Assembly (NCBI GenBank): GCA_046861645.1 | Contig: JBHHUM010000029.1 | Span: forward strand, 1-25,936 | Reading direction: 5' to 3' | From: Fidelibacterota bacterium | GTDB lineage: Bacteria > Fidelibacterota > Marinisomatia > Marinisomatales > UBA2128 | Length of the DNA: 25,936 bases | Shown: positions 640 to 24,668 of the stretch, piece by piece | Layout of the letters: every line of letters starts with the position of its first letter | Position numbering within the stretch: the stretch's first letter is position 1 | Translations under genes and position numbers: made by a program | Notes under the pieces: generated by a model | Seen by the model: the letters and a program-made list of their open reading frames with translations, nothing else | The model's database searches: none | What the model was told of the DNA's origin: nothing

Positions 640-682
640 TGTTAAGAGCGGCGGGTAGTTATTTTGCTCGCCGCTCTTAACA
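640..682 (+). terminator. Strong intergenic stem-loop (terminator-like or mRNA processing/stability element)
   Basis: Perfect 14-bp inverted repeat TGTTAAGAGCGGCG (640-653) / CGCCGCTCTTAACA (669-682), extendable inward with G-U pairs. It starts 3 nt after the stop at 636. No poly-U tail follows, so termination function is uncertain. Confidence 0.6.
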
Positions 683-691
683 AATAATAAG

Positions 692-3421
692 ATGGCAACC
701 TTGTTAATCCGAATCCTGGTTACCTTCTTTTTTATCTGGTCTGGTTCTAATCTTCAAGCCGGAACTACAGGTAAAATCAAGGGCCGCGTTACTGATATAA
801 ATAATCAATCTTTAGTCGGAGTTAACATTGTATTAGATGGGACTTCTTTGGGAGCTGCAGCAGACGAGGATGGCAGATATTACATTCTAAACGTTCCTCC
901 CGGTTCTTATACAGTAGTCTTTTCCATGATTGGTTATAAAACTTTGAAAGTGAAAAATGTCAGGGTTCAATCCGATCTTACGACTGAATTCAATGCCACT
1001 TTGGAAGAAACCGTAGTCGCTGCCGGTGAAGAAGTCACTGTAATTGCCAAAAGAGGAATGATTCAGCGGGATGCTACTGCCAGCGCTGCCGTAATCTCCT
1101 CTGACGTCATCGAAGACTCCCCCATCGAAACCTTTCAGGCTATTGTCCAGACTAAAGCCGGTGTAACCGCTGATGCCGGAGGCGCTCTGCACTTCAGGGG
1201 TGGACGTTCCAATGAAATCGCATACCTTGTTGACGGCATCCCCAATATGAATCCTTACCTCACCACTCTAGGTGTAGATATCGCCACCAATGCTATTCAG
1301 GAGCTTTCCGTGCTTACTGGTTCTTTTAGTGCCGAATATGGTCAGGCTATGTCAGGTATCATTAATTTAGTAACGAAAGAACCCGGAACGAGTTATCATG
1401 GATCCCTGTCCTATATGAGTGGGGACCTCGCTACCAACTATGATATCGATATTAATCAGGCTGTACAGGATTATGGAGGAGCATACAATTTTGATAACAA
1501 CAAGGAAATAGAGGCTTCATTCTCAGGACCGTTACCCTTGTTCGGAAAACGACTTCGCTTTTTCTTTTCGGCCAGAAATGTCGGTAAAGATGGATATCTG
1601 TATGGCCTTTCACGATACAATCCTTATGGTGCTGAAAAAGATTCCTCGGAGTGGAAGGCATTCCCACTAAACCCTTCTATGAAAACAAATTTACAACTGA
1701 AATTGACTTTTAATCTTTTTTCTAAAGTTAAACTACAATATAACCTTCTTTTCGAAGATAGTTATTGGAAGAGTTATTCTCATTCCCGTAAATACATCGA
1801 AGAAGGGCACTACCAGAACTTTAAGAATGCCTTGAATCATATGTTTAAATTAACACATCAACTAAGTGAACTAATTTTCTATTCCGTCAGTTATTCACGA
1901 ATAGACAACCAGTATGAATATTATGCCTACGAAAACCTCGAAGATAGTCGTTATGTTTGGGGTGGGTACTATGTTCGGGATGATAATTATGAGTTTTATA
2001 AAGGGGGTACCAATAATTCTCGCCACAAAAGAATCCTTTTAACTGATCAGATCACTGGTCACTTTACTGCTCAGTTGGCAGCTCAACATGAGGTAAAACT
2101 GGGATTTGAAGCTAAGATGCACGAATTCGACCTGTCCAATTGGTCCATCTTAGTTGATAGAAAAGATGAACCGTGGGTAGATATTGATGGCAATGGCGAA
2201 TATGATGAAGGTGAAGAGTTTACAGATCTTGATGGCAACGGAACCTGGAGTTCAGCTAAGGATGATAATGGAGATGGCATAAATGGTAATGTCACGATCG
2301 CCAGCGGGGCATACTTTGACAGGTATCAACCTAAACCCAAAGAATTTTCGGCTTATATACAGGATAAAATAGAATTAAAGGATATGGTCATCAACGCCGG
2401 TGTAAGGTGGGATTATTATGACAGTGATGGTCGAGTCGCATTAGATTGGAGTGATCCCTCGCCAGACAGTACTAAAGATGCTTCTCCCAAGCAGCAATTC
2501 AGTCCGCGCTTTTCCATAGCTTATCCTGTTTCAGATCGGGGAAAGTTATTCTTCTCTTATGGTCATTTCTTTCAAATGCCACCTTACGAGAAACTGTATC
2601 ATAATCCTGATTTTGATGTCCTCCCAGGCGTTATTAAAAGCGATATAGGCAATGCTGATTTGAAACCTCAGAAAACGGTAGCCTATGAGATAGGTTTTGA
2701 ACAGGAAGTGGGATTGGATGCAGCAATCTATCTGAAAGCTTTTTACAAGGATTTCAGAAACCTGTTGGGTCAGCGAGTATATATTCTTCCAGGCGGTTCT
2801 GATTCTTATGCTCTATATATTAATCGTTCCTGGGGAAATGTGAAGGGTGTCTCCTTTACTTTTGATAAGCGGTTTACCAGACTTGTCTCCGGTTCTGTAG
2901 ATTATACCTATCAGGTAGCCGTAGGTAACGAATCAGACCCCACCAGAACTCGCAGAGACTACCGCCTCTCCATCGAACCCCAGAAAAAAGTGGTGAATCT
3001 GGATTGGGACCAAACCCATGCTTTCCGTTTCAACTTAAACATTGGGCATCCTGGCAAATGGCGAGTCAGTACAATTGGGCGGATTGAAAGTGGTTATCCT
3101 TATACTCCCAAGGATGTAAATGAGCTGGTCCGTATCGCCGAAGAGAACTCCGGACGGAAACCAAATCAGATTACCGTTGATCTGACCGCCTACAAGAATT
3201 TTGCGATTAAACTGAGCTCAGCTAAGATTTCCTATCGTCTATTTCTGAAAGTCTACAATCTCTTCGACCGGAGAAATGAAAACTACGTTTGGGACAGCTC
3301 CGGCAGGGCGGGTTACTCTCTGGGACGCTTCGGAGATGAATCAACTCCAGAATGGGTGAATCGTCCCAATTGGTTCTCACAACCTCGACTCATTTATCTT
3401 GGATTTGCTCTGGAATTTTGA
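692..3421 (+). CDS. TonB-dependent receptor with N-terminal CarboxypepD_reg-like domain (cassette 1)
   Basis: Signal peptide ending LQA-GTTGKIKGRV; GAAADEDGRYYILNVPPGSYTV (CarboxypepD_reg-like); plug HFRGGRSNEIAYLVDG and GSFSAEYGQAMSGIINLVTK; barrel motifs AYIQDKIE, NAGVRWDY, SPRFSIAYP, GNADLKP, YNLFD; C-terminal Phe. Confidence 0.95.
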   Translation: MATLLIRILVTFFFIWSGSNLQAGTTGKIKGRVTDINNQSLVGVNIVLDGTSLGAAADEDGRYYILNVPPGSYTVVFSMIGYKTLKVKNVRVQSDLTTEFNATLEETVVAAGEEVTVIAKRGMIQRDATASAAVISSDVIEDSPIETFQAIVQTKAGVTADAGGALHFRGGRSNEIAYLVDGIPNMNPYLTTLGVDIATNAIQELSVLTGSFSAEYGQAMSGIINLVTKEPGTSYHGSLSYMSGDLATNYDIDINQAVQDYGGAYNFDNNKEIEASFSGPLPLFGKRLRFFFSARNVGKDGYLYGLSRYNPYGAEKDSSEWKAFPLNPSMKTNLQLKLTFNLFSKVKLQYNLLFEDSYWKSYSHSRKYIEEGHYQNFKNALNHMFKLTHQLSELIFYSVSYSRIDNQYEYYAYENLEDSRYVWGGYYVRDDNYEFYKGGTNNSRHKRILLTDQITGHFTAQLAAQHEVKLGFEAKMHEFDLSNWSILVDRKDEPWVDIDGNGEYDEGEEFTDLDGNGTWSSAKDDNGDGINGNVTIASGAYFDRYQPKPKEFSAYIQDKIELKDMVINAGVRWDYYDSDGRVALDWSDPSPDSTKDASPKQQFSPRFSIAYPVSDRGKLFFSYGHFFQMPPYEKLYHNPDFDVLPGVIKSDIGNADLKPQKTVAYEIGFEQEVGLDAAIYLKAFYKDFRNLLGQRVYILPGGSDSYALYINRSWGNVKGVSFTFDKRFTRLVSGSVDYTYQVAVGNESDPTRTRRDYRLSIEPQKKVVNLDWDQTHAFRFNLNIGHPGKWRVSTIGRIESGYPYTPKDVNELVRIAEENSGRKPNQITVDLTAYKNFAIKLSSAKISYRLFLKVYNLFDRRNENYVWDSSGRAGYSLGRFGDESTPEWVNRPNWFSQPRLIYLGFALEF

Positions 3422-3454
3422 CAAAAGGAAAAGATTAGTTTTCATCACTCACCT

Positions 3455-6400
3455 ATGAAACCAAGTAAACTCTTCACCCTTCTCTTAATTTTATCTATCA
3501 TACCCCTTTCTTTGAGCGGTCAATCTTCCTTAAAAAGGCCGGAAGGGCCGATGAAAACCTGGTCTAAAGCTGAATTTGACAACTTCATTAAAGCCATGGA
3601 AGAAAGGCGAAGATTAAACAAGTCTTTAGCACACGAAGACCGGAAATTCGCCACACACGACGGCAATAAAATCAGAACCTTGTTCTACAATTATGGCTCC
3701 ATTGGCCGTCCCAATACTGAACCATCCATGGAGTGGCCAGCCTATTCTGGACACGGATATGCTTATGAGTTTGGTCCCCTTGTTGGCGTAGAGGTTGTGG
3801 ACGTAGATAGCGATACCGTCTGGATTTTCTCCGATGGCATGTTAGATGGTGGCGATTCTGACCCCACTGGAGGATCAAACTGGTGGGGCTGGGAACCCCT
3901 TCCCGGCTACGCCGCTCCAGATCAGGAGAGTATCGCCATGTCTAATGATCCTGATTCCTGGGGCGATAATTTCCCTATCGATGACGAAGGGTATCTCCTC
4001 TGGCCAGGACAATTCGGCGATGGTGTAATTACAGCTGATCTGGAGAGCTACTTTGTCATGGACGATCGCTGGAATGCAGAATTCGAATATTATCCCAGTC
4101 CCTCAGATTCATCCCTGAGAGGAACTGGTGTTACTGTAGAAGTACGGGGCTACCAATATGCCGCTTCTGTAGCTGAGGATATTATCTTTTTCTTATACGA
4201 GGTTACCAATACCAGTGAGAAGACGATCGATAAAGTTGTTTTGGGAATGATTGGTGATCCTCACATAGGGGGAGCAGGAGATTTTTCAGATGATTTTGCT
4301 GGTTTTGTAGATAATGATGGTATCGACAGTTTTACCGGGGAAGAAGTTGATGTAACAGGCATGGTCTATTGTTGGGATAAACAGGGGTCAGGAAATGATT
4401 ACGGTATCAGTTGGGATGAACTGGGCTGGCTTGGCTATAAATTCCTGGAAAGTCCGGGAGTTGCTATAGATGGTATCGATAACGATAACGATGGTTTCAC
4501 TGACGAAAGTCAATATGATAGTATCGATAACGACGGAGATTGGCACGCAACTGACGAAGAAGCTGTCGCCGATACTGCAGAGGCGAGAGATTGGTGGAAT
4601 ACCAAAATGTGGAACGGGATCGACGATGACGGTGATGGACGCATCGACGATTGGGGTGACCTCGATGGCAAAAGTGATGACCTGAATGAGAACGGCGTTC
4701 CTGACGAAGGTGAACCCGATTTCGAATTGTCTGATGTGGATGAAAGTGATATGATCGGCCTTACCAGTTTCTGGGCACCGATTTACGGTGTGGAAGAAGC
4801 TGGTATGGACGATGTGATGTGGAGACGGATGACACCGGGAACATTTGCAGGTCAGACTGATATCGCTCAGGATGCAGATAATGTCTTTATTTTCGGTTCT
4901 GGATATTTTACACTGGAACCAGGTGAATCTCAAAAATTCTCTATCGCTGTTCTTATGGGTCAGAATAAAGATGATCTCTTCTCAAATGCAAAAGTAGCCG
5001 ACTGGATTTATCGCCTTGGATTCCAGTTCACCAAGCCACCAGATAAACCTACGGTAACAGCAGTTACCGGTGATAAGAAAGTTACCCTGTACTGGGATCG
5101 TAATGCCGAAGCATCCGTCGATCCTGTTAATGGTGAGGATTTTGAAGGATATAAACTCTATAGAAGTACGGTAAAAGGAGATTGGGGACAGGAAATAACA
5201 AACAATCAGGGTATCTCCGTGGGCTATGTTCCCATTGCCCAATTCGATTTGGATGATGATATTGAAGGTCCCCATCAGGTGCCTTCAGCCGAAGGGTATC
5301 ACATGGACATGGGTGATGATACAGGTTTATCCTGGACCTACATAGATACTCCGGTAATCAATGGACTGACATACTACTATGCCATCACTGCTTACGATAA
5401 AGGTAGTGCCGAAGGTAACTTGCCCCCTCTAGAATGTTCTAAGAATCTGGGTGATATCAACGTAGTCTCCGTGACACCTAATGCACCTGCAGCTGGTTAT
5501 ATCCCTCCCAATACCCCTGATCCAGGACTTGAGTTTGTTACCCATGATTCCGGGGCGGCCACTGGTGAAATTATTATAAACGTACTTAACCCTGAAATTG
5601 TACCCGATAATTGGTCCTATGAAGTTCAATTTACTATAGACGGAAACAAAACTTATTACTCGGTAGCAAATCTTGAGACTACTGCTGACACAGTCACAAT
5701 TATCAGTGGACAGGCAAGTCTCAGCTTGGAAAACATCGTCCCCGGTTCAGTAAGTATGTCAACAGTTGACGGATCAATGACCTTTGAAGATACAACCGAC
5801 TTTACTATTGATTACGAATCAGGAACACTTACGGTCATATCCACTGCAATCATAGAAGGGACAAGCTACATTGTCACCTATAACTACTATCCTCTTTATC
5901 AAAGTTCATACATAAATGGAGAACCTTTGAATCCAGTATTCAATGGTATGCAGATCTTGGCTTATAACGACGATCTCGAATTATTAAAGGACAGTAGTGG
6001 TTGGATCAGTGGAGATTGTGATTACATTCCTAAAATCAACTTATACTCAGGAGGAACACTTTACCCAGCAGATTTTGAAATTCAATGGCAAGGTTCCCTA
6101 GGAGACTCAGTTTCCCAGGACTTTTTCTTTGGTATTTCAGCACCCTTTATTATTTGGAATGTCACTGAAGAAGATACTGTTCGTTATGTCATTACTGAAG
6201 ATGATGGTGACAAAGAGTGGGATCCAAGTGAACCGATCATATTGCTTCCCTATGAAACAGGGTTAAGTACCAGTTTTCAGGTCACTTTTACAATCGATTC
6301 TCTGGATATTGATACCACAGTTGTAAATGATACTACTGTCATCTATGACACTACGATAGTTGCTTTTGAGTCTTTTGAAGCAGGTGATGTAGTGGGAATC

Positions 6401-6808
6401 TATACTCTAAAACCATTTGCTGATAATGATATCTACCGTTTTACTACTTCTGCTGCAAGAACTGAGCAAAACCTCACCAAGAATGACATGTCCCTCATCG
6501 CAGTCGTACCTAACCCGTACGTGGCAGCTTCAAGCTTAGAGGCTACTCCACCTCAGGTTTTCACTGCTGGACGAGGTGAACGAAGAGTGGATTTTATACA
6601 TCTCCCTGAAGAGTGTACCATCCGCATTTACACCATGGTGGGAGAACATGTCAGGACACTCACACATACAGGAACGGTATTCGAAGGGACAGAATCCTGG
6701 GATCTCTTAAATAAGGATGGTCACGATATTGCCCCCGGAATTTATATCTATCATATAGAGACTCCGGAAGGTTTCGAAAGAGTTGGAAGATTAGCAATAA
6801 TCAAATGA
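3455..6808 (+). CDS. Large acidic secreted protein of unknown function: Asp-rich Ca-binding-like repeats, FN3-like domain, T9SS-like C-terminal tail (cassette 1)
   Basis: Signal peptide MKPSKLFTLLLILSIIPLSLSG; DGIDNDNDG/GIDDDGDG repeats; FN3-like VTLYWD...FEGYKLYRS...NGLTYYYAITAYD; tail IAVVPNPY...IRIYTMVGEHV...WDLLNKDGHDIAPGIYIYH...LAIIK. Confidence 0.85.
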   Translation: MKPSKLFTLLLILSIIPLSLSGQSSLKRPEGPMKTWSKAEFDNFIKAMEERRRLNKSLAHEDRKFATHDGNKIRTLFYNYGSIGRPNTEPSMEWPAYSGHGYAYEFGPLVGVEVVDVDSDTVWIFSDGMLDGGDSDPTGGSNWWGWEPLPGYAAPDQESIAMSNDPDSWGDNFPIDDEGYLLWPGQFGDGVITADLESYFVMDDRWNAEFEYYPSPSDSSLRGTGVTVEVRGYQYAASVAEDIIFFLYEVTNTSEKTIDKVVLGMIGDPHIGGAGDFSDDFAGFVDNDGIDSFTGEEVDVTGMVYCWDKQGSGNDYGISWDELGWLGYKFLESPGVAIDGIDNDNDGFTDESQYDSIDNDGDWHATDEEAVADTAEARDWWNTKMWNGIDDDGDGRIDDWGDLDGKSDDLNENGVPDEGEPDFELSDVDESDMIGLTSFWAPIYGVEEAGMDDVMWRRMTPGTFAGQTDIAQDADNVFIFGSGYFTLEPGESQKFSIAVLMGQNKDDLFSNAKVADWIYRLGFQFTKPPDKPTVTAVTGDKKVTLYWDRNAEASVDPVNGEDFEGYKLYRSTVKGDWGQEITNNQGISVGYVPIAQFDLDDDIEGPHQVPSAEGYHMDMGDDTGLSWTYIDTPVINGLTYYYAITAYDKGSAEGNLPPLECSKNLGDINVVSVTPNAPAAGYIPPNTPDPGLEFVTHDSGAATGEIIINVLNPEIVPDNWSYEVQFTIDGNKTYYSVANLETTADTVTIISGQASLSLENIVPGSVSMSTVDGSMTFEDTTDFTIDYESGTLTVISTAIIEGTSYIVTYNYYPLYQSSYINGEPLNPVFNGMQILAYNDDLELLKDSSGWISGDCDYIPKINLYSGGTLYPADFEIQWQGSLGDSVSQDFFFGISAPFIIWNVTEEDTVRYVITEDDGDKEWDPSEPIILLPYETGLSTSFQVTFTIDSLDIDTTVVNDTTVIYDTTIVAFESFEAGDVVGIYTLKPFADNDIYRFTTSAARTEQNLTKNDMSLIAVVPNPYVAASSLEATPPQVFTAGRGERRVDFIHLPEECTIRIYTMVGEHVRTLTHTGTVFEGTESWDLLNKDGHDIAPGIYIYHIETPEGFERVGRLAIIK

Positions 6809-7833
6809 CTGCAACAGGAAAAAAACTTACCCTCTTTCCCCTACTCTTATTGATACTGATGGTTTCGGGACTGCAAAGTACTACAAAAGTAGGAACTTCC
6901 GTCGCTCAGTTTTTGAAAATTGGGGTTGGAGCCCGCGCTACAGCCATGGGCGAATCCTTCAACGCCCTCTCTACTGGTGTAACATCGATTTACTGGAATC
7001 CCGCCGGCCTGGCAAGATTGAGTAAAAGTGAACTTTTCTTCTCACATACCAACTGGCTGGCTGGTATTTCCCATGATTTTTTCGCCGTAGCAGTCAATGC
7101 CCCCGGGGTAAGAGGTACCATAGGACTTTTTGCCAATAGTGTCTCTGTACCTGAAGACGAAGTTCGTACGGTTTTTCAACCTGAGGGAACCGGGGAATTC
7201 TTTGACGCCAGTGATTTAGCGATTGGCCTATCGTACGCTCTTTCCATCACCGACCGATTCTCCGTTGGTTTCGTAGGAAAATATATACAGGAGCGAATCT
7301 GGTCTATGAATTCATCAGCCGTAGCTCTTGATATCGGTACTCATTACCACAGTCAATTCCACAATTTAAAGATTGGGATCGCCCTCAGTAACTTCGGTAC
7401 CAAGATGCATTTATCCGGCCGGGCGAACCTCCTTTTTGTTGATCCAGACCCGTTTATTGAAGGTAATACCGAAACCATCCGGGCTGAACTTGAGATGGGA
7501 AAATGGGACCTGCCATTGTATGTCAGGACAGGAATCGCTCTCGATCTCATTCAGGGAAAGGGAATAAATATTTCCTGTGCTGTAGATATGATTCATCCCA
7601 ACGACAATCTCGAGTTTTTCAACACTGGATTTGAAGCTTCCATAGCAGATATGTTTTTCCTTCGAGGTGGTTACAGGGGTTATGGAATGGATGAAGCCGA
7701 AGGAGGACTGGCTTTCGGTGGGGGATTAAAACTATCCCTCGGATCTCTAACTAAACTCCATATTGATTATGCCGTTACTGATTTTGGTAGATTATCTTTT
7801 GTTCACCAGTTTTCTACAAGTGTAAGTTTCTAA
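6805..7833 (+). CDS. PorV/PorQ-family (UPF0164-like) outer-membrane beta-barrel (cassette 1)
   Basis: Signal peptide; FLKIGVGARATAMGE and SIYWNPAGLA family motifs; amphipathic beta strands; C-terminal Phe; ATGA overlap with the upstream gene. Confidence 0.9.
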   Translation: MTATGKKLTLFPLLLLILMVSGLQSTTKVGTSVAQFLKIGVGARATAMGESFNALSTGVTSIYWNPAGLARLSKSELFFSHTNWLAGISHDFFAVAVNAPGVRGTIGLFANSVSVPEDEVRTVFQPEGTGEFFDASDLAIGLSYALSITDRFSVGFVGKYIQERIWSMNSSAVALDIGTHYHSQFHNLKIGIALSNFGTKMHLSGRANLLFVDPDPFIEGNTETIRAELEMGKWDLPLYVRTGIALDLIQGKGINISCAVDMIHPNDNLEFFNTGFEASIADMFFLRGGYRGYGMDEAEGGLAFGGGLKLSLGSLTKLHIDYAVTDFGRLSFVHQFSTSVSF

Positions 7834-7835
7834 GC

Positions 7836-7877
7836 TGAGTAGATGCAGCTTTCTTTTCTACATCTGCATCTCTCTCA
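7836..7877 (+). terminator. Weak stem-loop after cassette 1
   Basis: AGATGCAG (7841-7848) pairs with CTGCATCT (7864-7871), with an imperfect TGAG/CTCA extension. The loop is 15 nt and there is no U-tract. Confidence 0.3.
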
Positions 7878-7913
7878 TCCCCTTGCGGATTCCAAATGTG
7901 ATTACCAAAAACG

Positions 7914-8504
7914 ATGTTGAACTATATCTGGTTAGGCATGATTCTCATTTCTGTAGTTGCAGGAGCAGCTACAGGGAAGATTGATGCGGTAACTGAAGAA
8001 GCCATCAGCATGGCCAAAACGGCTGTGGAAATAGCCATTGGACTTATTGGGGTCATGGCTCTCTGGTTGGGAATCATGAAAATTGCTGAGGAGGCAGGAT
8101 TAGTCCATTTGTTAGCTAAAGGTATTAAACCCCTCACCCGAAGGCTCTTCCCTGACGTACCCGTAGAACATCCCGCTATGGGAGCCATGATTCTGAACAT
8201 TTCCGCAAATATTTTAGGCTTGGGTAACGCCGCAACACCATTCGGTATCAAAGCCATGGAAGAGTTACAGAAGATTAATCCTCGGAAAGATACTGCCACC
8301 AATGCCATGTGTACTTTTCTGGCAATCAATACCTCCAGTGTACAAATCCTCCTCCCTGCTACTGTTGTAGGACTCATGGGAGCCGTATCCAATCAGATTT
8401 TTATTACCACGATCCTGGCAACATCCCTTTCAACTGTTGTCGGTATTGTCGCTGCTAAAACATTTGAAAAAATGAAAGCATTCCGTATATCTAATGAAGA
8501 ATAG
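7914..8504 (+). CDS. spmA: SpmA-family membrane protein (nucleoside recognition/gate domain)
   Basis: MLNYIW start; LWLGIMKIAEEAGL, LFPDVPVEHPAMGAM, NILGLGNAATPFGIKAMEELQ and MCTFLAINTSSVQ motifs typical of spore maturation protein A; hydrophobic. Confidence 0.93.
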   Translation: MLNYIWLGMILISVVAGAATGKIDAVTEEAISMAKTAVEIAIGLIGVMALWLGIMKIAEEAGLVHLLAKGIKPLTRRLFPDVPVEHPAMGAMILNISANILGLGNAATPFGIKAMEELQKINPRKDTATNAMCTFLAINTSSVQILLPATVVGLMGAVSNQIFITTILATSLSTVVGIVAAKTFEKMKAFRISNEE

Positions 8505-8513
8505 AAGCTGAAC

Positions 8514-9047
8514 ATGGCCCTAATCAACGAAATCTCAAAATACATCATCCCTTTCATTCTGGCATTAATTCCTCTTTACGCCATGTTGGCACGAAAAGTG
8601 AAGGTGTATGAAGTTTTTGTTGAGGGGGCCAAGGAAGGGTTCACCATCGCTGTACGGATTATCCCTTACCTGGTAGCAATATTAGTCGCCATAGGTATGT
8701 TACGAGCTTCCGGTGTCCTCGATTGGATGATCGTTGGACTTCAACCGGTATTATCATTCATAGGGTTTCCTCCTGAGAATCTTCCCCTGGCTTTTATGAG
8801 ACCCCTTTCAGGAAGCGGTTCCTTTGGTTTGCTGGCCGATCTGGTAAATTTACATGGCGCTGATTCGCTACAGGCGAAGATAGGAGCCACTATGTATGGT
8901 TCAACAGAGACTACCTTCTATGTTCTCGCTGTATACTTTGGAGCAGTGGGAGTTCGGAAGAGTCGTCACGCTGTTCTGGCCGGATTAATGGCAGATTTAG
9001 CGGGTATTGTGGGGGCTGTTTACATCTGTCGACTCTTCTTCGGATGA
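8514..9047 (+). CDS. spmB: SpmB-family membrane protein (nucleoside recognition/gate domain)
   Basis: VYEVFVEGAKEGF, IIPYLVAILVAIGMLRASG, PLAFMRPLSGSGS and GSTETTFYVLAVYFGAVGVRKSRHA motifs; 9 bp downstream of spmA. Confidence 0.93.
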   Translation: MALINEISKYIIPFILALIPLYAMLARKVKVYEVFVEGAKEGFTIAVRIIPYLVAILVAIGMLRASGVLDWMIVGLQPVLSFIGFPPENLPLAFMRPLSGSGSFGLLADLVNLHGADSLQAKIGATMYGSTETTFYVLAVYFGAVGVRKSRHAVLAGLMADLAGIVGAVYICRLFFG

Positions 9048-11911: not shown

Positions 11912-11918
11912 GCAGAAA

Positions 11919-14900: not shown

Positions 14901-15170
14901 TCCTGGGAACGTCAACATTTGTATGTATCAGGAAGAGGAACACGAAAGATTGATTTCATATATCTACCTCAGAAGTGCACGATAAAGATTTTTACTTTAT
15001 CGGGTTACCTGGTGGATACTATACATCACGATAGTGATCTTGAGGATGGTTCAGAATCTTGGGACATGCTTTCCAAAGATGGCCTGGAGATCGCCTATGG
15101 CATCTACATCTATCATGTGGATGCACCGGGTCTGGGAGAGAAAATCGGCAAATTTGCTATTATTAAATAA
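11919..15170 (+). CDS. Large acidic secreted protein of unknown function, paralog of 3455..6808 (cassette 2)
   Basis: GTG start, signal peptide. Shares EDRKFxTHxGNKI, ESYFVMDD, FLESPG..DGIDND, FN3-like VTLYWD/FEGYRIYRS/YYYAITAYDKG and tail IAVVPNPY...WDMLSKDG...GIYIYH...FAIIK with the cassette 1 protein. Confidence 0.85.
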   Translation: MKHTQFIAILLIGLLTNLEAQRSKDQVDVQRKPYQRSMGREDRKFSTHNGNKILTRFYNFGGIGDWTIAGRYDSGIYPIGSGRSYIAEFTPVIGASVVLESGVRRHIISDGMVSNNGKDLSPEGYQWGFEPLSGYADPNQENIAMNDDPDSWPESWPNKTTDWDGVWNGQYGKYARADQESYFVMDDFYNDEFPFYPDSTDSLRRGLGIQVEVRGYQWSHPAAEDIIIWTYWITNVGTSTLDSVIFGMYGDADVGDDGDQGDDDSWFDQENSIVYQWDHDNFSNAKGGFKPAYFGWTFLESPGNPHDGIDNDFDGMVDESQFDGIDNDGDWDPDKDDIGSDGLGPSHEDYTGPDLDGTEGNGVPDVGEPNFEFTDNDESDQIGLTSFFAAPWPNITASDDEQLWSQLVPGFFDVPEQTKDITFLYGSGYFSLQAGERKKFAIAMLFGEDLDDILRNAQTMQKIYDADYSFAKPPRKPVLTAVPGNGKVTLYWDRKAEKSRDPIYGYDFEGYRIYRSTDPAFLEPWVITDAYGHLTFKKPIVQFDLEDGLEGPHPIAFNGIQFDMGDDDGLSHYWIDTTVQNGQTYYYAITAYDKGYDEDFYDRGLSEYENLQPLAPSECTIIVDLDASGNVISLGENVVEVVPDAPVAGYIPPNTPDDDLQFVKHDSGAATGSIIINTVDPDSVHQNWTYAVEFLIEDNKTYYSVRNQGTFIDTLTIVGGWSSVQNKNLVSGTVSITSLDGTIEYEEGVHFEVNYELGIISCLTGDLCEDDSFLISYEYYPLYKSDFLDGEPYNPFFDGMQILAYDDPLTFLEDSSGWYSGDCDYIPNISVYSGGTLYPADFELRWGGGLGDSLSQDVMFGVTAPFTVWNTTEDRETRYVILENNGDKQWDPEETIVLIPKETGMETSFKISFIVDSLQIDTTVINDTTEIYDTTIVPIEHVEAGDILRILTSKPFTENDSYSFITTTSRIDKSRAREELSKIAVVPNPYIVTASWERQHLYVSGRGTRKIDFIYLPQKCTIKIFTLSGYLVDTIHHDSDLEDGSESWDMLSKDGLEIAYGIYIYHVDAPGLGEKIGKFAIIK

Positions 15171-16207
15171 TGAAAGACTCTTCGATACACAAATTTCTCC
15201 TACCCATTCTAATATTGGTCACAATGTATCCTGCCTTTAGTCAATTTACCCGGCAGGTAAGCAAAGTAGGAACTGCCGCAGCTACATTCCTCGAGATGGG
15301 AGTGGGCGCCCGTGCCCTATCTATGGGGGACGCCTTTGTGTCCATGGCGGATGATGCCACGGCCTTGTACTGGAACCCCGCTGGCATTGCCTCTGCAAAG
15401 GAAACCACAACTCATTTCTTTCATCTACCCTGGATTGCAGACATCAGTTTCAATTATGCCGCTGTGATAATACCTATTCAAAATATCGGTGTATTGGGAA
15501 TCTCAGCGACTTCCGTTACTATGAATGACATGAGGGTAAGAACCATTATCTATCCCGACGGTACCGGTGAGAAATTTGGCGCCAACGATATCGCTCTGGG
15601 AGTGAGTTACGGACGCAGGTTCACTGACAGTTTCTCTTTTGGCTTTAATGTGAAATTTATTCAACAACAAATCTACCACATGTCAGCTTCAACCATAGCT
15701 ATTGACATTGGTTCACTATTTATTACACGGAACCGAAATATTCGAATTGGAATGAATGTTTCCAATTTCGGGGAGAAGATGCATCTGGAAGGACAGGATA
15801 CTAAAATCACCTATGATATTGATGAAGAGCAAACTGGAAATAATGACCGTATTGATGCTCATCTGGATACGTGGAAATGGCCGCTGCCACTTCTGTTCAG
15901 AATAGGTGTCAGCTCGAACCTGCTCAAATCTGGTCACCAAACCCTTTCCATATCCTTTGATGCTGTCCATCCCAATGATAACGTTGAGTATGTCAACGCA
16001 GGTCTAGAATACTCCTGGCAGAATAGGGTTTTTCTACGGGCTGGTCAATCAACACTTTTCATGGAAGATGCTGAGCAAGGATGGTCCATGGGAGCTGGTA
16101 TCCAGCAGCAACTCTATAAAAACGTACAGATCAAGCTGGATTACGTTAGTCGAGATTTTGGTGTTTTCGGAATAATGTCTGGTCTTTCTCTCAGCTTAAC
16201 GTTTTAA
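15170..16207 (+). CDS. PorV/PorQ-family (UPF0164-like) outer-membrane beta-barrel (cassette 2)
   Basis: FLEMGVGARALSMGDA, ALYWNPAGIA; shares PxGTGExF, WxLPL and HPNDN with the cassette 1 barrel; C-terminal Phe; TAATG stop/start overlap. Confidence 0.9.
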   Translation: MKDSSIHKFLLPILILVTMYPAFSQFTRQVSKVGTAAATFLEMGVGARALSMGDAFVSMADDATALYWNPAGIASAKETTTHFFHLPWIADISFNYAAVIIPIQNIGVLGISATSVTMNDMRVRTIIYPDGTGEKFGANDIALGVSYGRRFTDSFSFGFNVKFIQQQIYHMSASTIAIDIGSLFITRNRNIRIGMNVSNFGEKMHLEGQDTKITYDIDEEQTGNNDRIDAHLDTWKWPLPLLFRIGVSSNLLKSGHQTLSISFDAVHPNDNVEYVNAGLEYSWQNRVFLRAGQSTLFMEDAEQGWSMGAGIQQQLYKNVQIKLDYVSRDFGVFGIMSGLSLSLTF

Positions 16208-16320
16208 AGAAAATTCTGGATACTAGTTTGGGCAATCTGAGTCTCTTTCCAAGAATAGAGTATAGCTTGTCCCCTAACCCTCCTTATTTACTGTCCCTGC
16301 TGAAATAGTTCGAGGCTTCT

Positions 16321-16349
16321 TTTATATGACAAGTTATTTGACATAAATT
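16321..16349 (+). promoter_or_regulatory. Candidate sigma70-like promoter (possibly leaderless) for the 16356 gene
   Basis: TTTATA (16321-16326) - 17 nt - TAAATT (16344-16349) - 6 nt - GTG start. The region is AT-rich, so a chance match is possible. Confidence 0.25.
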
Positions 16350-16355
16350 AGACCA

Positions 16356-17531
16356 GTGAAAAGATTCTTATTACATAACTTGCACCTGATATTATTTCTC
16401 ACTTTCGTAAATCTAACTGTTACTTTATCAGGTCAAATATCTCTACACAATCATATCCTACCTAATACACCGGAAAATGTACGATTACTAATATCACCTT
16501 CAGGAACAATAGCTGGGTATTGGACTGATGAAGAAGTCTCATTATCAAAACTAACTACGAAATTCGAGGATAAACGTGTGTTGCAGGTTTTACCTATTAC
16601 CCTGTTTGGTGATCTCCATTTCATGGTGGTCACCGTAGAACCAATTAGCAGTTACTCGCCTCGCACAATGACTATCTCATTTTTCACTTCTAAAGGAAGT
16701 GAAGTAACATCTTGGCCGATATCTATCCCTTGGGATCATGCTTTCCCGTCAGTCATCCCGATTGATGAGGGCCTTGTTCTAATTACCGATCCTGAAAGTC
16801 AGGAAGTACGTCTCATGGATCAACACGGAAACCTCAAGGCGGTAGATTTTCTCTTCCCGGATACTGATCGAGATCACGAAAAAGTCCTGGCAGCAGCACC
16901 CTCTTCCCAGAATCATGTATACTTGGGGGGAATGAAATCAGCCTCATTAGATCAATCGGACAATGTTGTGCTGTTCTCTTGGAATCTGGACGAGTCCCCC
17001 GTTAATATAATGGAACTGCCTCTTACTGTCCTGCGAGATATTACAATTTCCCATAGTGGTTTTGCTGCTGTCTCCGGAACAGTGACAACGGAGAAAGTAT
17101 TCAATCAGGAACCAAGACTCATCCTGATCTCATTGAAAAATCTAACAATCGTTAGTTATGACTTCCTTCCCAAAAAGATGCTCTGGGTTAACGATAGGCT
17201 TTTCGCAGCAGACAATCATCAGCTAATTGTCATACATCCTGAAAATAAAGAAACATTGGCAGAAATCCAGTTCGATAGAAAAGTCATTCCCTTGCAGCTT
17301 TTTACTGCCAAACCCTCTGTCCATTTGCTATATGCCGAGAGCAGCCGTTATTCAGAGGGGATAATCGAACTGGGAGACATAAATATTTTGTCCATTAACC
17401 TGCAATCGTTCTACGATTCAGTGACCTCCGTGAGCCGTGAATACCATAAAGTTGTCCAGGCATGGCCTACAGAGGATGATTTGTTTTTCCTTCAACTGGA
17501 TGGAGAACTACTGGAATACCACCCCGATTAG
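16356..17531 (+). CDS. Hypothetical exported protein (beta-rich, possibly propeller-like)
   Basis: 391-aa ORF with GTG start and signal-peptide-like N-terminus (MKRFLLHNLHLILFLTFVNLTVTLSG). It fills the gap between neighbours. No family recognised. Confidence 0.75.
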   Translation: MKRFLLHNLHLILFLTFVNLTVTLSGQISLHNHILPNTPENVRLLISPSGTIAGYWTDEEVSLSKLTTKFEDKRVLQVLPITLFGDLHFMVVTVEPISSYSPRTMTISFFTSKGSEVTSWPISIPWDHAFPSVIPIDEGLVLITDPESQEVRLMDQHGNLKAVDFLFPDTDRDHEKVLAAAPSSQNHVYLGGMKSASLDQSDNVVLFSWNLDESPVNIMELPLTVLRDITISHSGFAAVSGTVTTEKVFNQEPRLILISLKNLTIVSYDFLPKKMLWVNDRLFAADNHQLIVIHPENKETLAEIQFDRKVIPLQLFTAKPSVHLLYAESSRYSEGIIELGDINILSINLQSFYDSVTSVSREYHKVVQAWPTEDDLFFLQLDGELLEYHPD

Positions 17532-17542
17532 ATATCGATTCC

Positions 17543-19666
17543 GTGGACCGAATCAATAACATACTTGTCGCTATTTTCACCGCAACTCTTCAGTTCCTAT
17601 TGGCAGAGTCCTACAACTGGCCCTGTGTACCCTTTGACGAGCAACATGGGATTAATGGCACCTTTTGCGAGAATCGCTCCGGATCATCAGGGTCCATTGA
17701 CCACTTCCATGACGGCGTGGATATCCACCTTTCGGTTGGTGGGCAGGTGTACTCGGTCATTAACGGTACCGTGACCAGCATCGGTTGGCCGGGAGATTAT
17801 GGGATAAATTCCTGGGTACGAGTGGGACGTTACGCTTATGTCCATGTAAATCCCGTAGCTGGACTTTCAGTAGGTGATCCGGTGATAGCTTTCGAAACTG
17901 TACTTGGGTCAACCAACTCCTGGAATCATATTCACTTCAAAGATGGTTATCCCGATTCAGAAATTAACGCCCTGCGAACAGAAGGGGGACTAGATCCATT
18001 CCAGGATCTCCACGACCCTGCCATCATGGATATTCGTTTCTACATGGACGAATCAACCACCCAATTCTCTAATAATCGTGTCTATGGCCTGGTTGACATC
18101 ATTAGCCGTGCTGCAGATATAACTGATACAGGGCCCTACGGTGGGAATAACGGAATCTATAAAATTGGTTTTGACATTATAGATCAAAACGATAGCATTG
18201 TAGCCGGTCCACGTCTCCCCTTCCAGTTTGATGAAATTCCTGCCAGTGATTCCTATGTACACAATGTCTTTCATGATGGCTCTACAACCAGCATATACCA
18301 CTACATTGTCTCCAATCACCTCACCTATAATGGCTCGGTGGACGTCTCCGATTGGGAACAAGGCTTTTACACTGCCCGGGTCTACACTTGGGATACCATG
18401 AACAATACCGACACTCTAACAGCAGAATTTGAAGTAACGGAACAGGACAATTCAGCACCGGAACCACCAATTCTCCTTTCTGTCCTCGGCGAAGATAACG
18501 GATTCCGTATCCGTTGGTTACCCAACTCTGAAGAAGACCTGGCAGGTTACCGCCTCTACTTCAGTTTTGATATGGAAACCTGGACCAGCAATCATGACGA
18601 AACAATTTTAACTGACACCACCACTAAACTAGTAGTAGCATCCTTTCCCCAGGATATGGCTATCTATTTTAAATTGACAGCAGTGGACAATGCCCCCTTT
18701 CCTAATGAGAGCGATCCATCGGATATTTATGGGCTCAGGTTAGGCAATCCAAATGAACAATTCGTCATCATTGATGCATTTGATAATGAAAATAGCGTCT
18801 GGCAGGAATCTTCACACCCTTTTGTGGCCTTAATCGGTAACAACCTTGACAGAATAAATATTCCTTTTTCTACAGTGAATGATGAATTATTTGACATGGA
18901 TACCACTTACACCTTACCTCCTGGTAAAATTATCTATTCTCTCGATGATTTCAATCCTCTACCTATAAGTCTCTTGCAAAGACTCAGGGAGAATCTTTCT
19001 GGTACATGGCTTACAGGTGGCGGTCTTTTACAGGGTCTTAGTTCTGATTCACTGGGTTCGCTGTACTTAGAGGAACTGGCCATAACTCTCGGATCACTGG
19101 AGCCTACTCCGGCAGAAATAACTGGAATGGGAGGACGTACTTTTACCTTGGACACCTCTTGGTATATTCTTGATTCCCTATATACGATTAGCATTGATCC
19201 TTTTGTTGGTTCCACTATTTTAGAAGATAACGAAGGTCGCTCTTTTGGCGTACAGGCTTATCAGTTTCTATTTACAGTTCCTCCTCCAGAGATGTTATTC
19301 GGTCCTGAACCAGATGAAGATCTATTAGAGGAAATTGTCTGGTTACTCCTGGGAGATTTACAAGTTGGAACACCATCTTCTCTTCCTGAAAGCTTTGCCA
19401 TAAATGCCTATCCCAATCCTTTCAATCCACTTACCACCATACGCCTTGATCTACCGGTTGAGGGCCGACTCACGATGACGATCTACGACATCCTTGGGCA
19501 TGAGGTTGAAGAAATAGTGAGTAGCAAAATAGTGAATGGTGAACAAGAAGTTATGTGGCAAAGGGGTGGAAATGCCAGTGGAGTGTATATCTTGAAAGCC
19601 GATTTTACCCCCTTGGGCAGCAGAGAAACATTTCATCTAACAAGAAAAATAGCACTGTTGAAATGA
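17543..19666 (+). CDS. M23-like metallopeptidase with Ig-like/FN3 modules and T9SS type-A C-terminal domain
   Basis: Signal peptide; YNWP...GTFCENR...HFHDGVDIH (HxxxD), YAYVHV and WNHIHF (HxH) zinc motifs; FN3 IRWLPNSEEDLAGYRLYFS...YFKLTAVD; CTD NAYPNPFNPLTTI...IYDILG...ASGVYIL...RKIALLK. Confidence 0.8.
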   Translation: MDRINNILVAIFTATLQFLLAESYNWPCVPFDEQHGINGTFCENRSGSSGSIDHFHDGVDIHLSVGGQVYSVINGTVTSIGWPGDYGINSWVRVGRYAYVHVNPVAGLSVGDPVIAFETVLGSTNSWNHIHFKDGYPDSEINALRTEGGLDPFQDLHDPAIMDIRFYMDESTTQFSNNRVYGLVDIISRAADITDTGPYGGNNGIYKIGFDIIDQNDSIVAGPRLPFQFDEIPASDSYVHNVFHDGSTTSIYHYIVSNHLTYNGSVDVSDWEQGFYTARVYTWDTMNNTDTLTAEFEVTEQDNSAPEPPILLSVLGEDNGFRIRWLPNSEEDLAGYRLYFSFDMETWTSNHDETILTDTTTKLVVASFPQDMAIYFKLTAVDNAPFPNESDPSDIYGLRLGNPNEQFVIIDAFDNENSVWQESSHPFVALIGNNLDRINIPFSTVNDELFDMDTTYTLPPGKIIYSLDDFNPLPISLLQRLRENLSGTWLTGGGLLQGLSSDSLGSLYLEELAITLGSLEPTPAEITGMGGRTFTLDTSWYILDSLYTISIDPFVGSTILEDNEGRSFGVQAYQFLFTVPPPEMLFGPEPDEDLLEEIVWLLLGDLQVGTPSSLPESFAINAYPNPFNPLTTIRLDLPVEGRLTMTIYDILGHEVEEIVSSKIVNGEQEVMWQRGGNASGVYILKADFTPLGSRETFHLTRKIALLK

Positions 19667-21102
19667 AATATAAGAAATTTATCTTCCTTTGGTTCACTTA
19701 TCTATTATTCTTTACAAGATGTATTCCTATCCATCCGGTGGTTACTGAAACAGGTCAATTCAAATATGTAAAGGAGATTAACCGAGTCATACGTGATTCC
19801 GGATTGAAAGCTAACATGGGGATTAAAGTAGTTTCCCTACAGTCAGGTAAAACCCTTTATGAATTAAACTCAGAACGGCTTTTCACACCTGCCAGTAATA
19901 ATAAACTCTATACCGGTTTGGGAGCTCTTATGCTACTGGGTAAAGACTTTACTTTCGAAACATCTGTTTATCTTAACGGTTCGACCCTGATTTTAAAAGG
20001 TGGCGGTGATCCTGATCTAACTCTCGAACAACTCGATTCTCTGGCAAACACAGTAGCCAGTTATGTCGAGGGAGTGGACGTACTCCTTCTTGATGATACC
20101 CTTTTAGATTCCGTCCCTTTCGGAACAGGATGGATGTGGGATGAAGGACCCTGGTGGTATGCGGCTCAGATCAGTGCACTGACAGTTAACGATAATGTTG
20201 TAGACTTTATTATTGCACCTGGAACTATCGCTAAACCAGTAGAAGTAACCTTATCTCCTCAGACAGATTATATCTTAGTACAAAATAATTCCATGACTGT
20301 CCAAGATACCACTGGACTCCAAGAATTAAAGATTGAGAGAGATTGGTTTCATGAAACCAACAATTTCCTGATCTCCGGTAACCTGTTGGTAACTTCCCCC
20401 GTAGATACTTTCTATAGAAACATCGAGGATCCGACCTTATTTGCCGGTACAGTATTCAGAGAAATGTTGGAAGCTCATAAGGTACGGGTTGGAATAATAA
20501 AAAAAGGTTCCTTGCCAGATAATTCCAAACTCCTAACCAGCCACAAGTCCGCCCCTCTGTTGGAAGCAGTGACTAATCTGTTAAAAAAGAGTGATAACCT
20601 GTCTGCCGAACTATTGATAAAAGTCATCGGCCACGAATCCAGTGGGACTCAAGGCACTTGGCAGAATGGACTACAAGCTATCAAGACTTTTCTCTATAAT
20701 GAAATAGAGATCGACACAGCCGGTCTTTATCTGGCTGATGGTTCCGGCGTTTCCCGATACAATTTGACCACTCCGACACAGTTAGTTAAACTCCTGACTT
20801 TCGCTTTTTCAAGAGAGGACTTTAGAGAATCATTCCTGACCTCACTGCCAATTGGAGGTTGGGATGGAACTCTTAAGAAGCGGATGAAGAACTCCTCAGC
20901 AGGGAATCGCATTCACGCTAAAACAGGTACATTAGAGGGAGTGAGTTGTTTGTCAGGCTATGCTTTTACAAAGAATAATGAACCACTTGCTTTTTCCATC
21001 ATGATGAACGGTTACGTGGGTAGTGCCAGCCCATATCGGAAACTTCAAGACGATATCTGCAGGATATTAGTAGATAAGTCGCATCTTTATTCATTTCCCT
21101 AA
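19663..21102 (+). CDS. dacB: D-alanyl-D-alanine carboxypeptidase/endopeptidase, PBP4 type (peptidase S13)
   Basis: FTPASNNK (SxxK), KGGGDP, GWMWD, KSDNLSAE (SxN), DGSGVSRYN, AKTGTL (KTG). Start reassigned from 19555 to the ATG at 19663, which makes an ATGA overlap with the upstream stop and gives an N-terminal export signal MKYKKFIFLWFTYLLFFTRC. Confidence 0.95.
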   Translation: MKYKKFIFLWFTYLLFFTRCIPIHPVVTETGQFKYVKEINRVIRDSGLKANMGIKVVSLQSGKTLYELNSERLFTPASNNKLYTGLGALMLLGKDFTFETSVYLNGSTLILKGGGDPDLTLEQLDSLANTVASYVEGVDVLLLDDTLLDSVPFGTGWMWDEGPWWYAAQISALTVNDNVVDFIIAPGTIAKPVEVTLSPQTDYILVQNNSMTVQDTTGLQELKIERDWFHETNNFLISGNLLVTSPVDTFYRNIEDPTLFAGTVFREMLEAHKVRVGIIKKGSLPDNSKLLTSHKSAPLLEAVTNLLKKSDNLSAELLIKVIGHESSGTQGTWQNGLQAIKTFLYNEIEIDTAGLYLADGSGVSRYNLTTPTQLVKLLTFAFSREDFRESFLTSLPIGGWDGTLKKRMKNSSAGNRIHAKTGTLEGVSCLSGYAFTKNNEPLAFSIMMNGYVGSASPYRKLQDDICRILVDKSHLYSFP

Positions 21103-21259
21103 TGGTTTTAATCTCGTAATATTAGTACAGATGAATAGGAAAAACGTATGCTTCAGAATTCTTTCTTCCTACTTAAGGATTTTTTATATACTGATTATAT
21201 CTCAGAGCCAGGCATTTACCTGGAACTGTACATTCCTGGCAACGAGACAACTAACGTGG

Positions 21260-21287
21260 TTGCAAATCGACAATCGGCAGGTATCTT
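21260..21287 (+). promoter_or_regulatory. Candidate sigma70-like promoter for the ldcA-like gene (possibly leaderless)
   Basis: TTGCAA (21260-21265) - 16 nt - TATCTT (21282-21287) - 5 nt - TTG start at 21293; no well-placed Shine-Dalgarno. Confidence 0.35.
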
Positions 21288-21292
21288 AATTA

Positions 21293-22237
21293 TTGAAATG
21301 GGATAAAATAACTAAGCCTCCTCGTCTTCCCAGTGGAGGTACAATTGGAATTGCTTCCCCGGCAAGGTGGACGAGTGAGGATAAGCTCGAAACTGCTGCT
21401 CAAGTCTTGACTGATGCAGGATACGGGGTAAAGTTCGGTTCAGCCTGTCATCTTCGGGAGGACCAGTACGCCGGCTCAACTAAAGAGCGTATCCGCGAAC
21501 TGGAGGAGCTGTTTGCCGATCCCGAAGTCGATGCCATTATCTGTGCCAGGGGCGGATACGGTTCAATTCGCGTTACTGATGGACTCAATTACTCGATTAT
21601 TCGAGACAATCCTAAGATTTTCGTCGGCTTTAGCGATATCACTGCCCTCCACTGCGCTATACAGAAAGAGTGCGGACTCACTACTTTCCACGGTCCCATG
21701 CTGTGGAACTTCGAGGAGTCCACTGACATATTCACGCTCAATAATCTGTTATCCATACTGAGTGGTGATAATCCTACCAAACTGGAGGTTCCCAAGTGTC
21801 TTCAGCTTACTGTCTTGCGAACAGGACAAGCAGATGGTCCTCTCTTTGGTGGGAACCTGACCCTTTTGAACAAGATGATTGGTACCCGCTGGGATTTTGA
21901 CACTGAAGGGACAATTCTATTCGTGGAAGACGTGGATGAGAAATTCTACCGCATAGACCGGGATCTGCTGCACCTGAAGCGAGCCGGAAAGCTCGACAGG
22001 GTCGCCGGACTCATTGTGGGTAAAATGATGAATATCGAGGACGAAGAGATTCCGTTTGGCAAGTCAATAGATGAGATTGTGCTTGACGTGTGCGGAGATG
22101 GAGACTATCCCATTATATCAAATTTCCCCTGCGGTCACGACCGCCACTTGGCTACACTGCCGCTGAGAATCCCGGCTCGCCTTGAGGCGGATGTTAGTAG
22201 TGTTTCGTTCCGGCTCCTCGAGCCAGCGGTAAGTTGA
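21293..22237 (+). CDS. ldcA: LD-carboxypeptidase / muramoyltetrapeptide carboxypeptidase (peptidase S66), cytoplasmic
   Basis: TIGIASPA, AIICARGGYG, FVGFSDIT (catalytic Ser), TFHGPM, GGNL, ILFVEDVDE (Glu), FPCGH (His); no signal peptide; TTG start. Confidence 0.9.
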   Translation: MKWDKITKPPRLPSGGTIGIASPARWTSEDKLETAAQVLTDAGYGVKFGSACHLREDQYAGSTKERIRELEELFADPEVDAIICARGGYGSIRVTDGLNYSIIRDNPKIFVGFSDITALHCAIQKECGLTTFHGPMLWNFEESTDIFTLNNLLSILSGDNPTKLEVPKCLQLTVLRTGQADGPLFGGNLTLLNKMIGTRWDFDTEGTILFVEDVDEKFYRIDRDLLHLKRAGKLDRVAGLIVGKMMNIEDEEIPFGKSIDEIVLDVCGDGDYPIISNFPCGHDRHLATLPLRIPARLEADVSSVSFRLLEPAVS

Positions 22238-24607: not shown

Positions 24608-24668
24608 CAAGCGGTAATTTAGGCATCTGAGAAACGTCAGGAACATAAAAAGTGGGGACACAGGATAA

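Follow-up and report, generated by a model that had tools for sequence, protein, structure and literature searches.

A stretch of 25,936 nt from a bacterium of the Fidelibacterota (Marinisomatota, SAR406; GenBank assembly GCA_046861645.1, contig JBHHUM010000029.1), hereafter the window, carries at positions 692..22237 a block of 12 genes that probably serves the use of exogenous cell wall, with two cassettes built on TonB-dependent receptors (TBDRs) as the importers; we put the probability of this reading at about 0.7. The window is the whole of contig C115, part of a source genome of 2.5 Mb that is 94.5% complete. All 12 genes lie on the + strand with intergenic gaps of -4 to 190 bp, in the order TBDR1, BIG1, PorV1, spmA, spmB, TBDR2, BIG2, PorV2, a 391-residue protein, an M23-like peptidase, PBP4 and LdcA. 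By BIG we denote a protein of about 1,100 residues with a type IX secretion system (T9SS) tail and without a Pfam family, and by cassette a TBDR, a BIG and a PorV/PorQ barrel. A sequence-only reading had described a tightly packed, co-oriented block with two TBDR cassettes and an SpmA/SpmB pair, following the logic of a polysaccharide utilization locus (PUL) aimed at peptidoglycan (PG). This description holds: the receptor domain PF00593 is found twice (95 and 109 bits), each time within a three-gene unit, Gate domains are found in both SpmA and SpmB, and the linked enzymes are predicted to degrade one polymer and are accompanied by PG-catabolic neighbors (NamZ, amidases, AnmK, NagZ, VanX, lysA). 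The block is real, conserved and PUL-like in its logic, outside the SusC/SusD family, and within a larger PG-harvesting gene island it likely forms the end devoted to uptake and peptide trimming.

We quantified the linkage of these genes by searching 40 genomes of the same order with spmA, the M23 domain, dacB, ldcA and BIG2, counting each pair where both genes were present, with a rough chance of linkage of 0.03 per gene pair. The genes spmA and ldcA lie within 6 kb of each other in 16 of 18 genomes, spmA is linked to dacB in 15 of 18 and dacB to ldcA in 16 of 19, while the M23-like gene is linked to ldcA in 12 of 13 and to dacB in 10 of 12. The cassettes take part in this linkage, whose absence would have refuted the sequence-only reading: BIG lies within 20 kb of the M23-like gene in 11 of 12 genomes, and is linked to spmA in 10 of 15 and to ldcA in 12 of 16. 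Three weak M23 matches, fragmentary dacB matches and second ldcA copies were left out before counting, as were BIG matches below the best-scoring tier, which kept 20 genomes and one split match; several of the linkage misses are contig breaks. Gene order and orientation differ among the relatives, and linkage survives inversions and shuffling. The usual form is hyp-M23-dacB-ldcA-spmA-spmB, where hyp stands for the 391-residue protein, with divergent FG-GAP-TBDR-BIG-PorV cassettes; unlike this form, the window has spmAB between its two cassettes. The cassette(-cassette)-PorV-hyp-M23 order of the window returns in five genomes that belong to other families of the phylum and were chosen by BIG similarity alone. 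Seven Calditrichota-titled M23 loci carry a hyp-like gene before M23 and none of dacB, ldcA, spmAB or BIG.

The neighbors that recur in these loci are NamZ and diaminopimelate (DAP) decarboxylase (nine genomes each), an APC permease (seven) and an Amidase_2 with a T9SS tail (five), followed by Amidase_3, AmiA-like, AnmK, a NagZ-beta-lactamase fusion, VanX, M14, M55, NlpC/P60, GHL10, GH18, NagB and a second, exported LdcA. BLAST-derived labels of this kind can be partial-domain matches, as for one GHL10 (G048), GH18 (G009), Amidase_3 (G019) and NagZ (G096, the beta-lactamase-like half). Genomes of family f12, the smallest of the order at 0.8-1.1 Mb, gave no match for spmAB or BIG, and the three of them searched for ldcA, dacB and M23 matched none.

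We next consider whether particular cassettes keep company with PG genes. Among 68 BIG proteins with context, a TBDR lies directly 5′ in 62 and a PorV directly 3′ in 58, and the distances among TBDRs and among BIGs are correlated over 62 pairs (Pearson 0.93, Spearman 0.60, best of 1000 permutations 0.14), indicating joint inheritance and not contact. A row of the BIG tree was called PG-linked when a listed PG gene lay within 12 kb. In a 68-row tree, a single group of 27 has 19 of the 20 PG-linked rows. In a 109-row tree, the two groups in which BIG1 and BIG2 fall, both supported and comprising 20 and 38 rows, contain 33 of the 34 PG-linked rows, and elsewhere 1 of 46 rows is PG-linked, with five spmAB-adjacent rows from distant groups left uncounted. 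The tree requires 10 label changes versus at least 23 across 200 shuffles, a contrast that is overstated, as kin share labels and the PG-linked rows were partly gathered starting from PG loci. A less biased test comes from cassettes of a third subfamily, fetched by similarity alone, which sit in separate PG loci in all three cases with context (G027, G035, G039). The other BIG groups adjoin GH13/GH77/CBM20/TrmB genes, GH130 with ABC sugar transport, or GH16/GH5 genes. Other families of the phylum have tandem cassettes with BIG homologs of about 1,600 residues (L173-L175: G048, G079; L169-L172: G053, G059).

The contigs that precede the window supply enzymes that the block itself lacks. The sequence-only reading had found no muramidase or amidase; this is correct for the window and fails beyond it, where inspection of the upstream contigs found both classes, with NamZ, GHL10, Amidase_3, GH18 and lysA. 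Apart from one mismatch, the first 69 bases of the window equal the reverse complement of the start of contig C111, and the gene of an FG-GAP-repeat protein with a T9SS tail, which precedes cassette 1 in most relatives, is split between C111 (5′ part) and the window (3′ part, 1..636, +). C111 carries NamZ, an SSF symporter, a beta-lactamase-like protein and two further cassettes of TBDR/700-residue/PorV type. A GHL10-Big_5 gene runs across two contigs, with residues 1-268 on C42 and 277-1000 on C111; C42 also encodes Amidase_3 and GH18, and the end of C140, after lysA, holds a signal-peptide-like start fitting the missing GH18 N-terminus. No exact end overlaps were found between C140 and C42 or between C42 and C111, so these two joins rest on the split genes; judged from the contig sequences, a single island of about 70 kb across C140-C42-C111-C115 is probable, not proven. 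The two C111 cassettes (7608-22771), each with a 1,000-residue TBDR and a 700-residue BIG-like protein beside NamZ, form a second module type.

Elsewhere in the source genome, murQ lies beside anmK, NagZ is present, and de novo PG synthesis looks full, with murA, murB and the four dcw Mur ligases, which rules out a PG auxotrophy of the kind found in Fidelibacter multiformis IA91. PBP4 and LdcA are classical enzymes of own-wall turnover. The block might accordingly recycle the cell's own wall, with SpmAB replacing AmpG and the TBDRs recapturing self-shed fragments; the single gene copies in the genome, the lack of any AmpG or Mpl match in the source genome and the presence of the de novo synthesis genes fit such a role. 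However, T9SS-type tails on the M23-like protein, amidases, GHL10 and GH18 would put these enzymes outside the outer membrane, lysA, NagB-like, VanX and MurQ point to catabolism, and recapture would hardly call for as many as four or more importer cassettes. Consequently, we regard own-wall recycling as quite improbable and retain the use of exogenous wall.

The peptidases of the block correspond to those of the sequence-only reading, with some refinement. The M23-like metallopeptidase (17543..19666, +) scores 24 bits, below the PF01551 gathering cut-off of 28.7; the domain is therefore divergent and is named M23-like. Its HxxxD and HxH zinc motifs are intact, the five metal/catalytic-type residues (H56, D60, H101, H129, H131) being invariant in 14 of 14 orthologs, its profile matches the solved M23 structure 9gy1 (E 1.8e-6), and its T9SS tail passes TIGR04183 (31.9 versus 23). 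These motifs make it a predicted PG peptidase candidate. The PBP4/S13 DD-carboxy/endopeptidase encoded by dacB (19663..21102, +) scores 306 bits for S13 and 249 for TIGR00666 (cut-off 108), with SxxK at 78, SxN at 310 and KTG at 420. In place of a plain export signal, it is probably a lipoprotein, because a lipobox-type Cys stands behind the hydrophobic leader in nearly all of the 20 orthologs listed. The LdcA/S66 LD-carboxypeptidase (21293..22237, +) has no hydrophobic leader or signal peptide, carries both S66 Pfam domains (133 and 112 bits) with the Ser-Glu-His motifs in place (GFSD, EDVDE, GH), and does not reach the E. coli-type equivalog NF008424 (159 versus 378). Its deviating GC content, also noted earlier, was measured at 0.503 versus 0.41-0.47 for the other block genes, in the top 4% of 1268 genome genes. 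We considered ldcA as a foreign insert and found this unsupported, since it adjoins dacB in 16 of 19 relatives despite its GC content.

The 391-residue exported protein (16356..17531, +) has no assigned family, evolves fast with only two invariant residues among 22 sequences, and is encoded directly 5′ of the M23-like gene in relatives and even in the Calditrichota-titled loci; it is possibly a chaperone, inhibitor or partner of M23. Amidase_3 genes in four relatives and in the source genome are followed by a gene for an exported protein of 305-315 residues that is probably a propeller (L023:2808-3743; C42 5484-6431), a pattern of enzyme plus partner that we liken to hyp-M23.

The M23 family includes the bacteriolysins lysostaphin and LasA. 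With an intact catalytic motif and an export tail, the M23-like protein and its companions could likewise lyse live neighbors as their main purpose, in predation or antagonism, with uptake second, a role that does not exclude the use of exogenous wall. The loci examined showed neither a killing nor a delivery system, the exo-acting NamZ and NagZ suit debris, and a cultured relative uses released muropeptides according to the part of its account considered here (PMC11652737). We judge lysis as the main purpose to be very improbable, and continue with the uptake of wall fragments.

We now turn to the cassettes. Both TBDRs fall far under the SusC cut-off of TIGR04056 (368 bits): TBDR1 (692..3421, +), with an N-terminal CarboxypepD_reg domain, scores 73, and TBDR2 (9044..11911, +) scores 68. 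The latter has about 40 extra residues before its signal peptide, and its start is uncertain. A domain search of the window found no SusD family, and the BIG2 model has no SusD-like helical body, in agreement with the earlier description of a block built without SusC/SusD; the one SusD match of the source genome (PF07980) lies on contig C145, away from the block, and SusD is present in 13 of 61 phylum genomes. The barrels (6805..7833 and 15170..16207, both +) pass the PorV/PorQ family model NF033709 (196 and 201 versus 90) and fail the canonical equivalogs NF033710 (69 and 80 versus 250) and NF033711 (83 and 85 versus 220).

BIG1 (1117 residues, secreted, 3455..6808, +) and BIG2 (1083 residues, 11919..15170, +) share 49% identity, and neither matches the T9SS tail profiles PF18962/TIGR04183. 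An AlphaFold2 model of BIG2 is mostly beta (mean predicted local distance difference test score, pLDDT, 80) and suggests three parts. The N-terminal beta-supersandwich, with an acidic Ca-type loop, resembles the N-domains of GH15/GH94/GH116 (Z 16-19.6, root-mean-square deviation (rmsd) 3-4, 240-275 aligned, 6-12% identity). The middle has Ig/FN3-like strands and is barely covered by the structural comparison. The C-terminal domain resembles the T9SS tail of PorZ (5m11; Z 11.7, rmsd 2.4, 91 aligned, 28% identity). The source genome encodes the SprA translocon and PorU. A PDB sequence search with BIG gave 0 matches, an ESM Atlas search gave unnamed clusters only, and Foldseek with whole BIG2 gave weak, mixed matches. 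We rejected BIG as a glycoside hydrolase, the matches being to the supersandwich domain of GH15/GH94/GH116 only and the model having no helical barrel; the sandwich itself may still have an activity.

We predicted a complex between the BIG2 N-domain and TBDR2 without its plug and first barrel strands, alongside three controls. The score was 0.56 (runs 0.18/0.56/0.58) versus 0.00 for the best control, with contact agreement of at least 40% and partner pLDDT of at least 72, which we graded as weak support. Of 157 solved complexes 116 reach the mark used, as do 2 of 215 mismatches; those that do so with a score of 0.60 or less are 18 solved complexes and both mismatches. From these models, BIG as a lid over its TBDR is a reasonable hypothesis, and BIG1 too is a candidate for a lid or binding protein at the cell surface. 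The tails of PorZ and PorU stay bound to PorQ and PorV, and the cognate barrels are suggested to shield the tails from cleavage, in the portion of the published account used here (PMC10202324). These retained tails are a precedent for a private barrel anchor of BIG, and PorV/PorQ barrel 1 is a candidate for anchoring the BIG1 tail.

At the inner membrane, SpmA (7914..8504, +) and SpmB (8514..9047, +) are predicted to form an elevator-type secondary transporter. The fold was modeled on a fused SpmAB homolog, 46-47% identical to the window proteins (pLDDT 84). Its top 13 fold matches are all elevator-type (DASS, TRAP, ArsB, CNT, AbgT), with Z from 12.4 to 8.4 and the next at 6.7, over 247-334 aligned residues at rmsd 4.8-7.0; a PDB sequence search with SpmB gave nothing meaningful. 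Elevator-type carriers move small solutes, and a short peptide, D-amino acid or DAP is therefore a likelier cargo than a whole muropeptide. Across the phylum, spmB is present in 109 of 151 genomes, and AmpG-like matches occur in 15, none over cut-off. Among 20 further spmAB loci, 10 have PG genes within a 20-kb stretch and 6 more adjoin a TBDR-BIG cassette. The pair also stands beside DAP dehydrogenase, murB and murA-like genes (L160:6102-11289) and beside dacB, aspartokinase-like and dapB genes (L156:12820-14918), a hint that the substrate involves DAP. In B. subtilis, spmAB lies in an operon with dacB, and its role is given as spore-core dehydration, without a transport substrate, in the part of that account consulted (PMC8745062); the E. 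coli homolog yjiG is described as having an elusive function in a source seen in part (PMC13311989). At L155:9647-13815, a fused spmAB copy is flanked by an FAD-linked oxidase gene on one side and MacAB-type genes on the other; a second fused copy of this kind occurs in several family f25 genomes. A 775-residue protein without a Pfam match, NagB-like at its start by eye, is encoded beside spmAB in seven genomes (C42 6819-9146; L028:11275-13608).

Several observations weigh against the use of exogenous wall with these cassettes as importers. The genomes searched are kin, so the linkage counts are not independent. No regulator family was found by a domain search of the 15 window proteins, an absence already pointed out by the sequence-only reading. 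The TBDR2-BIG2 score lies in a band that is more often wrong than right unless the complex is likely beforehand, with one run of three at 0.18 and a truncated barrel. For a helical protein, the SpmAB Z scores, all below 13, are moderate; they were obtained with a fused homolog and not with the window proteins, and 4 of the 20 further spmAB loci have neither PG genes nor a cassette nearby. None of six Calditrichota loci is PG-labeled, and several cassettes in other families of the phylum stand alone. The two BIG1/BIG2 groups form one clade in reduced, hand-picked sets, by a quick mixture tree, but not with all 109 rows, where monophyly of all PG-linked cassettes proved unstable and was dropped. 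Finally, 25 of the 58 rows that make up the two groups lack any of the listed PG genes within 12 kb, some being short contigs or second cassettes of a tandem, and rows sister to BIG2 (G037, G025, G023, G157) adjoin TldD/PmbA, penicillin-amidase-like, PxpBC and DUF885 genes.

These last two observations, general peptidase genes without PG genes beside the BIG2 sister group and related cassettes without PG neighbors, favor another explanation, as do the several cassettes that genomes carry each: hyp-M23-dacB-ldcA-spmAB would serve PG, and one or both cassettes would import another substrate, such as peptides or a polymer, staying nearby by inherited synteny. Against it stand a linkage that outlasts inversions and gene shuffling, third-subfamily cassettes in separate PG loci in three of three cases, and starch- and glucan-type cassettes that are PG-linked in 1 of 46. 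We consider a different substrate for the cassettes unlikely, although one cassette subfamily may import peptides more generally, and the abundant BIG2 sister subfamily (loci L109, L110, L111, L204) is a candidate set of peptide-import modules. Import of PG fragments by the cassettes of the window remains our preferred reading.

We infer each functional step of the following mechanism, building on the gene content, motifs, linkage, subfamily context and predicted folds observed here. Hydrolases exported by the T9SS (the M23-like protein and the upstream amidase, GHL10 and GH18) would cut cross-links and glycan outside the cell. Each BIG would be exported by the T9SS with its tail kept on its own PorV/PorQ-type barrel, and would sit over its TBDR as a functional stand-in for SusD, capturing fragments that then enter the periplasm via the TBDR. 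There, PBP4 and exo-enzymes such as NamZ and NagZ would trim them. SpmA-SpmB, alongside sugar symporters, would move a small product into the cytoplasm, with a fragment of the stem peptide, or its D-amino acid or DAP, as the likeliest cargo of SpmA-SpmB, and LdcA, lysA, AnmK and MurQ would finish the process. Because the cell builds its wall itself, it would gain nutrient and precursors, and not the rescue of an auxotrophy.

Other features of the window are a stem-loop and two further genes. The stem-loop (640..682, +) is near-perfect, with a 19-bp stem, and lies between the FG-GAP gene and TBDR1; it folds at -32.4 kcal/mol (z -8.1, 0 of 200 shuffles) and has no long U tail on the + strand. 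From its sequence, it is possibly a processing/stabilizing or terminating hairpin. The other four intergenic folds of the window are unremarkable. Scans of the window for sigma-70 promoters and terminators gave counts at chance level, so they do not establish co-transcription of the block. Outside the PG block, two divergent genes of the GH13 alpha-amylase family (22238..24694, -, and 24669..25936, +) have a higher GC content, about 0.49; the first abuts ldcA with zero gap, and its longest open reading frame overlaps the start of the second, its true start probably being further in.

Bacteroidota PULs are built on SusC/SusD pairs. Like them, the block has a TBDR with an N-terminal extension, a tightly coupled partner gene, enzymes for several compartments and paralogous modules with substrate-dependent neighbors. 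Unlike them, its TBDRs are far from SusC, its partner is a T9SS-tailed beta-protein and not a SusD lipoprotein, each module has a dedicated PorV/PorQ barrel, the likely substrate is PG, and the window has no regulator. The PorZ/PorQ and PorU/PorV pairs, and type B cargo with PorP/SprF barrels, similarly place T9SS cargo beside a cognate barrel to which it is proposed to stay bound, as far as the source was covered (PMC10202324); here, instead, a TBDR is joined to the pair, which recurs in several copies in loci for nutrient use. The dacB-spmA-spmB operon of B. subtilis also links spmAB to a D-Ala-D-Ala carboxypeptidase, in the part of the source drawn on (PMC8745062), whereas the source bacterium is a non-sporulating diderm in which the partners are an S13 PBP4 and LdcA. 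The exo-lytic NamZ/NagZ/AmiE recycling set, characterized in B. subtilis according to the excerpt used (PMC8054146), has enzyme families that recur around the locus, which adds T9SS export, TBDR import and SpmAB.

Within this abundant phylum, the cultured IA91 depends on muropeptides of other cells, which it uses for wall, carbon and energy and on which it grows; the portion of its account considered here names no outer-membrane importer, and IA91 cannot synthesize PG, unlike the source genome with its murA, murB and four Mur ligases (PMC11652737). For SAR406, PG-degrading capacity and many Por-tailed genes have been predicted, in the text consulted (PMC5596340). In the open literature, with subscription papers largely outside the scope, we found nothing on a TBDR-BIG-PorV module or on SpmAB in PG uptake. 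Muropeptide use in the phylum is thus known; the new elements are the association, specific to subfamilies and examined with controls, between cassettes and PG loci, the contig joins, the BIG and SpmAB folds and the weak TBDR-BIG prediction.

For each of the two membrane crossings the locus offers a testable candidate: a TBDR module without SusD, and the widespread SpmAB pair, which is known chiefly from a spore phenotype. The map of subfamily contexts also lets cassette subfamilies predict the diets of uncultured lineages. In the sea, PG makes up a large pool of organic nitrogen and carbon. We tentatively propose, as an idea that may well prove wrong, that a second utilisome, built independently, exists in Marinisomatota and related phyla, composed of a TBDR, a T9SS beta-supersandwich cap and a PorV-type barrel, in which the BIG1/BIG2 subfamilies would be dedicated PG-fragment importers and SpmA-SpmB an AmpG-independent carrier of wall peptides. 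If this is true, SAR406 would consume a major share of the bacterial cell walls available in the ocean, as one of their chief users.

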